DNA of 64,000 nt, from the NCBI GenBank assembly GCA_964427425.1, contig CAYRUD010000012.1, forward strand, positions 24,183 through 88,182. Reading direction: 5' to 3'. Under the pieces are notes generated by a model that did no database searches, was not told the origin of the DNA, and was given only the letters and a program-made list of their open reading frames with translations. Shown here one piece after another: positions 24,029-25,654 of the stretch; the first letter of the stretch is position 1; the number at the start of each line of letters is the position of its first letter. Source of the stretch: an uncultured bacterium. GTDB taxonomy: Bacteria; Chlamydiota; Chlamydiia; Chlamydiales; FEN-1388. The translations under genes and the position numbers were made by a program.

Positions 24029-25654
24029 CTACTTTGTCTTCGGAGTAAACTTTGCAACGACCACTGTCGCGTTATCATGTGTATCAGCAAAATAGGCATC
24101 CTGCATCACTATTGTTGCGACTGTTGAGGTCCGAGTCGATGGCTCACCAATCTCACACAGATCTTCAGACTCAGTGACATCCCATATACCGTCTGACGCG
24201 ATATACAAGGTCATCTTGACCAAATCAGCCTCACTTATCTCAACTTTCTTTATGTCTGGCCTATGAATAAGCGCTCGTAGAGTAATATCTCATAAAGCTC
24301 CTGCCATAGCCAAGTGCCCCTCTAGCCGTGCGCAGTCACCACTTTTTTCAATCACTTCGCCTCCTCGAGCTGTGATCATTTCTCTATAAGGTGACTTATC
24401 ACATTTCATATCTTCACTTAATGGGTAATATCCATCTGGGAAAGCAATGATTGCTCGAGAGTCTCCAAGATTTGCGCAATAAAACGTAGAGTTAATACGG
24501 ACAACGACACACGCGGTCGTTCCTGAAATGTCCATCTCTATCCCATATTTATCCACGGAATAAAGAACGTGCTGGGTCCATTCATTCTGGAGCTCCAAAA
24601 ATGTTTGTGTGAGAGCATTATAGATTCTAAGATCCATTGGCTGATTTGAAAATTCATCCAGCTTTAGCTGGAAAACGTTAATAAAACGGCTCCTCACAAA
24701 GTCGACACAGTCAGAGCAGCCGCTCGCAGCATCAATATCACTCTCTCCGGCATGGCCGTCGAAAACTCCGTAGCAAGAAACTTTCGTTACTTTGCCATTC
24801 ACATCCATAGAGAAAAATTCACAAAGAGTTCTATCTTCATTCAGCTTTCGGTGCTCCCCACAAGCAGTCAGCATAAAAACTGATTCATAAAATTGCTTAT
24901 CGAAATTGAAAGTAAAATCACGATCCGCTCGAGAGATTCGCTCTTTCATTAACAAATGTGCGGGATGCCAATTTTTAACCTCTGTTATTTTGGTCGTAAC
25001 TTCCTCTACAGGCACTTTGTAGCATTGAAGCTTCTCTTGGATTGCATCGAGGTTATTCTCTACGCTGCACTCTTTCTCAAGAAGATTTGGGGCATTTTTC
25101 CGGCCCACAAATGCTAAGGCAATCTCTTGGATCACTTTCTTCTGATATTTACTCCAAAGAGCGCAAAACCCATGTTTTTCTTTTCGACAGAGTTCTTCAG
25201 CGTCTTGAGTTAACCCCAATGCTGAGACGAAACATTCAAAAACCTTATCTGTAGCTTCGTCTTTTTTCGGGACTTTGATTTTACCCATCAATCTCTGAAA
25301 CATTGTCGGGGGAGGATCATTTACGTCCTCTTCTTTAATCATTTGAGAAAGAGTAGATGGTTCATTGTTATGAATACTCTGGATGTGATCGAGCCACAGA
25401 TTCGCAACACTTGCAATAAGCTCACATCTTTTCGAATTAATATCGCTGAAAGCTTTGACAAGTATTGATTCATTATTGTCATCCCCTTTCCTTCCTGAGA
25501 AAAGAACATATGAAGGAGGAACAGGATTTATTCCCCCGTTATTCGATGGCGAATATTTCTTTATCTCCTCCTGAATTGAGTCCCATGTTATAAAGCTATA
25601 AAAAGTGGGATCTTCAAAAAATTTTGTTATTTCTATACTGTCTGCAGATATCAT
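24029..25654 (-). pseudogene. PP2C-family Ser/Thr phosphatase with a ~270 aa unknown N-terminal domain, interrupted by a single in-frame TGA (24290-24292)
   Basis: Track ORFs 24290..25654 and 24029..24223 are in the same frame. Hand translation across the gap reads ..RLEGHLAMAGAL*DITLRALIHRPDIKKVEISEADLVKMTLYIASDGIWDV..DNATVVVAKF. PP2C motifs GVFDGHAG, SDGIWDV and DNATVVV are split across the stop. Confidence 0.8.

Follow-up and report, generated by a model that had tools for sequence, protein, structure and literature searches.

A probable strain-specific nonsense mutation in a eukaryote-type PP2C phosphatase gene of a Chlamydiia bacterium

The stretch of Chlamydiia DNA analysed here (64 kb, hereafter the window) carries a gene for a PPM/PP2C-family Ser/Thr phosphatase that is interrupted by a single in-frame TGA, at a codon that reads GGA (Gly) in a nearly identical sister strain. 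We consider it very probable that this stop is a real, strain-specific G-to-T nonsense mutation. The proposed event is simple: in codon 455, a G-to-T transversion of the first base (24292) would have turned GGA into TGA, with loss of the Gly that forms the G of the conserved A-x-G-D block and an end to translation after Leu454. The locus would originally have encoded a eukaryote-type phosphatase with a complete catalytic domain behind a helical N-terminal extension of ~250 residues. The window strain would now carry it as a pseudogene of very recent origin or as a null allele that is segregating, while the gene of the sister is intact.

A single PP2C reading frame with one internal stop

The features of the locus are the following:

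24029..25654, minus strand: full-length ancestral PP2C frame, 541 codons plus TAG, intact in the sister strain (protein P0044)
24290..25654, minus strand: present ORF of 454 aa, ending at the premature TGA; its exact product is in the protein collection (P0001)
24290..24292, minus strand: premature TGA, codon 455; GGA (Gly) in the sister, Gly in 196/203 homologs
24032..24289, minus strand: the 86 codons beyond the stop, with the DGIWD and DN motifs, three core beta strands and two helices
24071..24877, minus strand: PP2C catalytic domain, residues 260-528 of the fused frame (PF00481; fold match to plant PP2CA, ABI1 and human PPM1K)
24878..25654, minus strand: N-terminal extension of ~250-259 residues, helical at low confidence, common only to P0046
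25548, minus strand: second difference in the gene, at codon 36, CCA (Pro) here and CAA (Gln) in the sister
25662..25667, minus strand: Shine-Dalgarno-like AAGGAG, 7 nt upstream of the ATG at 25654, read from the sequence
23997..24021, minus strand: G+C-rich hairpin just past the TAG of the full-length ORF (-24.8 kcal/mol, z = -3.17)

Translation of 24029..25654 on the minus strand gives one internal stop, the TGA at codon 455 (24290-24292), which lies between ...RLEGHLAMAGAL and DITLRALIH.... The ORF list divides this region into the 454-aa ORF at 24290..25654 and a short ORF within the 86 codons that follow. The initial annotation had taken the two as a single PP2C gene, and this reading holds, given that there is one frame and that the Pfam PP2C domain spans the TGA. 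The PP2C profile (PF00481; gathering score, 20.3 bits) matches the fused protein with 91.2 bits over profile positions 3-254 of 255. Taken alone, the 454-aa part matches positions 3-171 (E 3.8e-13) and the 86-aa part positions 187-254 (E 7.7e-6). Because these consecutive parts of one domain share one frame, it is not by chance that the two ORF pieces lie side by side.

The position of the stop within the domain had been placed at the conserved Gly of the R-x-x-G-D block, and the alignments agree. With phmmer, rice PP2C50 (PDB 5zch) has the Gly of its LAMSRSIGD at the position of the stop, 'leghlamagalGditl' being paired with 'vsgwlamsrsiGdryl'. Homologs were collected by an exhaustive search of 1.84 billion representative proteins, together with a word-indexed search, and aligned with MAFFT; the codon-455 column is Gly in 196 of these 203 sequences, the other residue types being N, I, A and S, and in 43 of the 43 sequences of a separate alignment (A2). 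At codon 452 (24299-24301), the PP2C and its relative P0046 (LAMAGALGD) both have Gly, at the position of the Arg of L-A-x-S-R-A-x-G-D that is present in 163 of 202 homologs.

The remaining PP2C blocks are intact in the fused frame (E273-D274, D299-G300-H301, G397-D398-S399, D488-G489..D492 and D527-N528). The metal-binding Asp residues D274, D299, D488 and D527, belonging to motifs 1, 2, 8 and 11, are all encoded in it, and their columns are at least 95% Asp among homologs. The motifs GVFDGHAG, SDGIWD and DN, which had been singled out from the sequence, are likewise all there and undamaged. Downstream of the TGA lie D488 (24191-24193), D492, D527 (24074-24076) and N528.

An AF2 model of the intact form predicts the alpha-beta sandwich fold of PP2C, with pLDDT mostly above 90 for residues 250-540; within residues 455-541, it contains the core strands 467-472, 482-486 and 529-538 and two helices. 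Foldseek matched this model to Arabidopsis PP2CA (4n0g) and human PPM1K (2iq1) with target TM-scores of 0.85-0.88 (E ~1e-18), and to ABI1 as well. An uninterrupted and complete PP2C domain is present in the sister product P0044 and not in the window strain. The N-terminal extension is modelled with a pLDDT of 30-70, and no Pfam family matches it.

The hairpin at 23997..24021 has a 10-bp stem (GGAAAGGGCC / GGCCCTTTCC) and lies between the convergent topA and PP2C genes, for which it is probably a common, bidirectional terminator; a simple terminator scan did not flag it. Its position suggests that the transcription unit ends past the ancestral TAG and not past the TGA, and a strong hairpin at this place agrees with a transcription unit laid out for all 541 codons. 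The neighbouring topA (21378..23981, plus strand) encodes a protein in which the last ~110 codons form a low-complexity tail rich in Lys, Thr, Ala and Ser (KKSSSTTRAKTTAATKKSKK...KKTAAKKKTSA), reminiscent of histone-like tails.

The sister strain and the reality of the substitution

The sister strain was found on a 91-kb Logan contig (SRR28842991), where the PP2C gene is intact (541 aa) and has the same neighbours as in the window, topA on one side and a gene for a 1179-aa PBP2-like protein on the other. The two strains are 99.8% identical over 16 kb, and their PP2C genes differ at 2 of 1626 nt. Besides the change at codon 36, the difference is at window position 24292, where the coding strand has T in the window strain and G in the sister, so that codon 455 reads TGA in one and GGA in the other. 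The suggestion that the stop stands in place of a GGA Gly codon, one transversion away, is therefore borne out. The 16 kb contain 32 substitutions, of which 17 are synonymous, 12 non-synonymous and 3 intergenic, a pattern that points to genuine divergence of two strains. With strains that had genuinely diverged, a nonsense difference would be one of the outcomes expected among the substitutions.

Only one other full-length homolog was found among the 1.84 billion representative proteins. This is P0046 (574 aa), which is 41% identical over the matched stretches and 33% over the full-length alignment, and which reads LAMAGALGD, with Gly at the position of the stop. Because the sister and P0046 both have Gly, Gly/GGA is the ancestral state and T the derived one in the window strain. 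The single-gene reading also survives a check in these relatives, none of which ends at the stop; each encodes one polypeptide.

Further relatives were sought more widely. TopA places the organism in the Chlamydiia, its closest species representatives being Chlamydiia MAGs with 55-62% TopA identity. No ortholog was detected when GTDB species representatives were scanned with the PP2C, and none was present near topA in the fetched flanks of six related Chlamydiia-type MAG loci. In JGI metagenomes, a 43-nt pattern spanning the site (N for the variable base) had no exact match, and a profile scan of these metagenomes returned only PP2C domains at <=32% identity.

Of the three options first put forward for the stop (a very recent nonsense mutation, a sequencing error, or programmed readthrough or recoding), the nonsense mutation fits best, in that a sister with 99.8% identity keeps GGA. 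A sequencing, consensus or assembly error, under which the organism would really carry GGA and an intact gene, is unlikely. It is favoured by the fact that one single-base substitution is the sole lesion, with the catalytic motifs and the rest of the gene undamaged, and by the GGA of the sister strain. Both differences in the PP2C gene are transversions, compared with 7 transversions in all 32 substitutions; this is an oddity of small numbers, and damage-type sequencing artefacts could account for it as well. Against an error, the 64-kb window has no other large ORF that is interrupted and shows no sign of frameshifts or of further broken genes, which suggests that the assembly is accurate. 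In addition to the intact 541-aa protein (P0044), the protein collection contains the truncated 454-aa product (P0001) and a 61-aa downstream remnant (P0045). The latter two are each recorded under two sources, NCBI and Logan, an indication that the T was recovered in more than one assembly, although the two sources may share a single read set. Moreover, at 0.2% divergence and with typical short-read error rates, real nonsense differences would be expected to outnumber consensus substitution errors. From this, we infer that the T is truly present in the cells.

The two strains also differ elsewhere. The sister is without 985 bp of the window (30053..31037; L001 ~3855-3862), a segment flanked by an 8-bp direct repeat, AAATATGA. 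We considered an IS insertion with an 8-bp target duplication as the source of this difference, but the ORF located there encodes a Peptidase_S41, which leaves a deletion in the sister. The deletion removes the start and most of the 356-aa Peptidase_S41 gene (ORF 29909..30979, minus strand), a gene that the window carries undamaged. In a third sample (SRR12997673), the 1.5-kb contig L057 is 100% identical to window positions 30865..32356, which include part of the 985-bp segment, and so carries the segment; each strain thus has its own gene lesion. Two other ORFs, of 998 aa (13819..16815, minus strand) and 298 aa (19213..20109, plus strand), match no Pfam family and are both kept in the sister, from which the 998-aa protein has 4 non-synonymous versus 2 synonymous differences.

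Fate of the truncated product and the question of UGA recoding

Under the nonsense-mutation reading, the 454-aa product would consist of the N-terminal region and roughly two thirds of the PP2C domain. The last 86 residues would be lost, and with them three core strands and the motifs DGxWD and DN, which contribute D488 and D527, half of the four metal-binding Asp residues. Because D488, D527 and these strands are missing, the product should, judging from the sequence and the model, be misfolded or at least catalytically dead, and probably unstable.

It is very improbable that the truncation is itself functional, be it as a 454-aa pseudophosphatase or decoy, or as separately made pieces that reassemble into a split enzyme. 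The 250-aa N-terminal region and a good Shine-Dalgarno site do remain, and gene callers report the 61-aa ORF downstream (P0045), but in the AF2 model the cut falls within the core of the beta-sandwich, and the sister and P0046 each make a single polypeptide. One substitution since the intact state would also have left no time to adapt to a split form. An ATG lies downstream, at codon 481, but without a Shine-Dalgarno sequence at a suitable distance, and a start there omits strand 467-472. Since this ATG is poorly served for initiation and starts inside the fold, an independent C-terminal product of consequence is unlikely.

Background readthrough of UGA yields traces of full-length protein with Trp or another near-cognate residue, here at codon 455, a position that is 97% Gly among homologs. 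A further idea is that a natural population maintains the UGA allele as a null, leaky or conditional, of a eukaryote-type PP2C effector aimed at the host, with either low-level readthrough or the 454-aa protein, which has a lineage-specific N-terminal domain, being functional in its own right; we give it only a slender chance. If it were true, the two strains would represent alternative effector states, and not 'intact versus broken'.

Recoding of the UGA is hardly credible, be it to selenocysteine, to Gly or Trp by an alternative code, or through regulated readthrough that would give a conditional full-length phosphatase. The frame downstream of the UGA is still fully intact, and UGA is the leakiest bacterial stop codon. 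There is also a superficial likeness to known UGA recoding systems, such as bacterial selenoproteins and code 25 of Gracilibacteria/SR1 (UGA = Gly), in that an in-frame UGA stands where relatives have Gly. Unlike in those systems, UGA works as a stop at other places in the window, and the stop is not conserved, with GGA in the sister and Gly in P0046.

The window argues in several ways against a changed code. TGA closes eight other large ORFs, that of MoxR among them, and the long ORFs of 998 and 1179 codons have no internal TGA. A single tRNA-Gly occurs in the window, with the ordinary anticodon TCC; a tRNA with anticodon UCA was not found there. In a six-frame scan for stops between long open stretches, checked with Pfam, no other split domain was detected in the window. 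Codes 4 and 25, in which UGA is a sense codon, were rejected on the grounds that eight large ORFs end in TGA and only this locus is split by one. A selenoprotein was rejected as well. Folding of the 68 nt from the UGA gave -7.5 kcal/mol (z = +1.25), with 180 of 200 shuffles folding at least as well, so that no SECIS-like hairpin was found 3' of the UGA in this comparison, and Rfam had no match in 23800..25900. Nor is Cys among the five commonest residue types in the stop column of the homologs, and neither Cys nor Sec is at the homologous position in the relatives. Near-cognate UGA readthrough mostly inserts Trp, not Gly, and programmed stop-codon readthrough was set aside because the stop is not kept in the sister (GGA) or P0046 (Gly). 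Programmed readthrough or recoding, which had been raised for this stop, therefore finds no support: TGA stops other ORFs, no hairpin follows it, and both relatives are without it.

Other parts of the window deserve mention here. The genes for the MoxR AAA ATPase (57376..58377) and a DUF58 protein (56416..57342) lie in one frame (55457..58377, minus strand) and are separate genes, with a TGA and 11 codons between them. A weak BatD-like match was found at 11986..13755 (minus strand), and the sister-contig gene calls include a gene with a VWA domain at 16818..17951 (minus strand). Together, the MoxR, DUF58, BatD-like and VWA genes suggest a dispersed Bat/MoxR-type set. Adjoining the genes for tRNA-Glu and tRNA-Lys (34868..35021), 35146..36630 (minus strand) encodes a 494-aa protein with two PLD-like (HKD) domains.

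Phosphatase type and biological meaning

The enzyme resembles eukaryotic PP2Cs more than the phosphatases typically paired with bacterial kinases. The Stp1/IreP PP2C model (NCBIfam NF033484) scores it at 44.8 bits, far below the equivalog cut-off of 230 bits. The 55 PDB sequence matches obtained up to E=1 are without exception eukaryotic PP2Cs, bacterial structures of the PstP, Stp or PrpC type being absent from them, and the best 50 Foldseek matches are all eukaryotic, as are all named sequence homologs. By both the PDB sequence matches and the Foldseek matches, it is closer to solved eukaryotic PP2Cs than to those of bacterial Group I. By its sequence, then, the gene is of the eukaryotic PP2C type and not an Stp1-type bacterial phosphatase. 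The initial annotation had supposed that, were the stop real, the phosphatase that partners the Hanks-type kinases of this organism would be lost or only conditionally expressed. That claim is unsupported, given 44.8 against 230 bits and 55 of 55 PDB matches being eukaryotic, and it is weakened further by the 250-aa extension and by the single full-length homolog among 1.84 billion representatives, the genome of the locus having been searched within the 64-kb window.

The PP2C put forward as such a partner in Chlamydia, for Pkn1 and PknD, is the conserved Cpp1 (CT_259/CTL0511; PMC5177608); according to a review, all sequenced Chlamydia encode it (PMC5177608). The window protein is like Cpp1 in being a PPM/PP2C-family Ser/Thr phosphatase of a member of the Chlamydiia, and the window also contains a gene with a kinase domain (49970..51802). 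Unlike Cpp1, the window PP2C has only one full-length relative in the 1.84 billion representatives and is missing beside topA in six related loci, two points that speak indirectly against its conservation across the Chlamydiia. In the 64-kb window, we find no evidence that identifies the PP2C gene as Cpp1 or that indicates loss of a core signalling partner. The kinase-domain gene is a 610-aa ORF (49970..51802, plus strand) in which the protein-kinase profile matches only residues 433-595 (profile 101-256). It is not PknD, for in comparisons with NCBIfam models it scores 22 versus 839 bits for PknD and 48.7 versus 550 for LegK1. It is possibly a kinase of divergent or eukaryote-like type whose N-terminal region is long.

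'Eukaryotic-like' PP2Cs are known in chlamydiae, in genera that include Waddlia, and in Legionella (Kerk et al. 2015, PMC4524716). Like those of amoeba-associated chlamydiae and Legionella (PMC4524716), the window protein has solved nearest relatives that are all eukaryotic, namely the plant clade A PP2Cs, PPM1K and PPM1A. Unlike them, it has a 250-aa N-terminal extension found in one other protein (P0046), it has Gly for the usual Arg in the L-A-x-S-R block, and it is broken by a stop in the window strain. It is plausible to suggest that the PP2C is an accessory, possibly secreted or host-directed enzyme and not the housekeeping chlamydial phosphatase. Genes of this kind are typically hit by strain-specific loss.

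The event itself is ordinary and of a known kind: in one strain, an accessory PP2C gene of eukaryotic type has become a null allele or young pseudogene. Strain-specific nonsense pseudogenes are known from reductive genome evolution in host-restricted bacteria. There, likewise, one point mutation introduces a premature stop into an otherwise pristine accessory gene, and a near-identical strain keeps the gene and has an independent lesion of its own, here the deletion in the S41 peptidase gene. The present case does not differ from these in kind and stands out only in that the codon struck encodes a residue that ranks with the most conserved of the domain.

For annotation, the two ORFs should be recorded as one PP2C pseudogene or null allele, and neither as two genes nor as a case of recoding. 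Beyond annotation, the consequences are small, with a mild value for chlamydial biology. The intact P0044, with an N-terminal domain present in one other known protein, is a candidate host-directed enzyme. The strain pair, one with the PP2C broken and the other with the S41 peptidase deleted, allows natural knockouts to be compared and shows, on a small scale, genes still being lost in a Chlamydiia lineage that has been poorly sampled.
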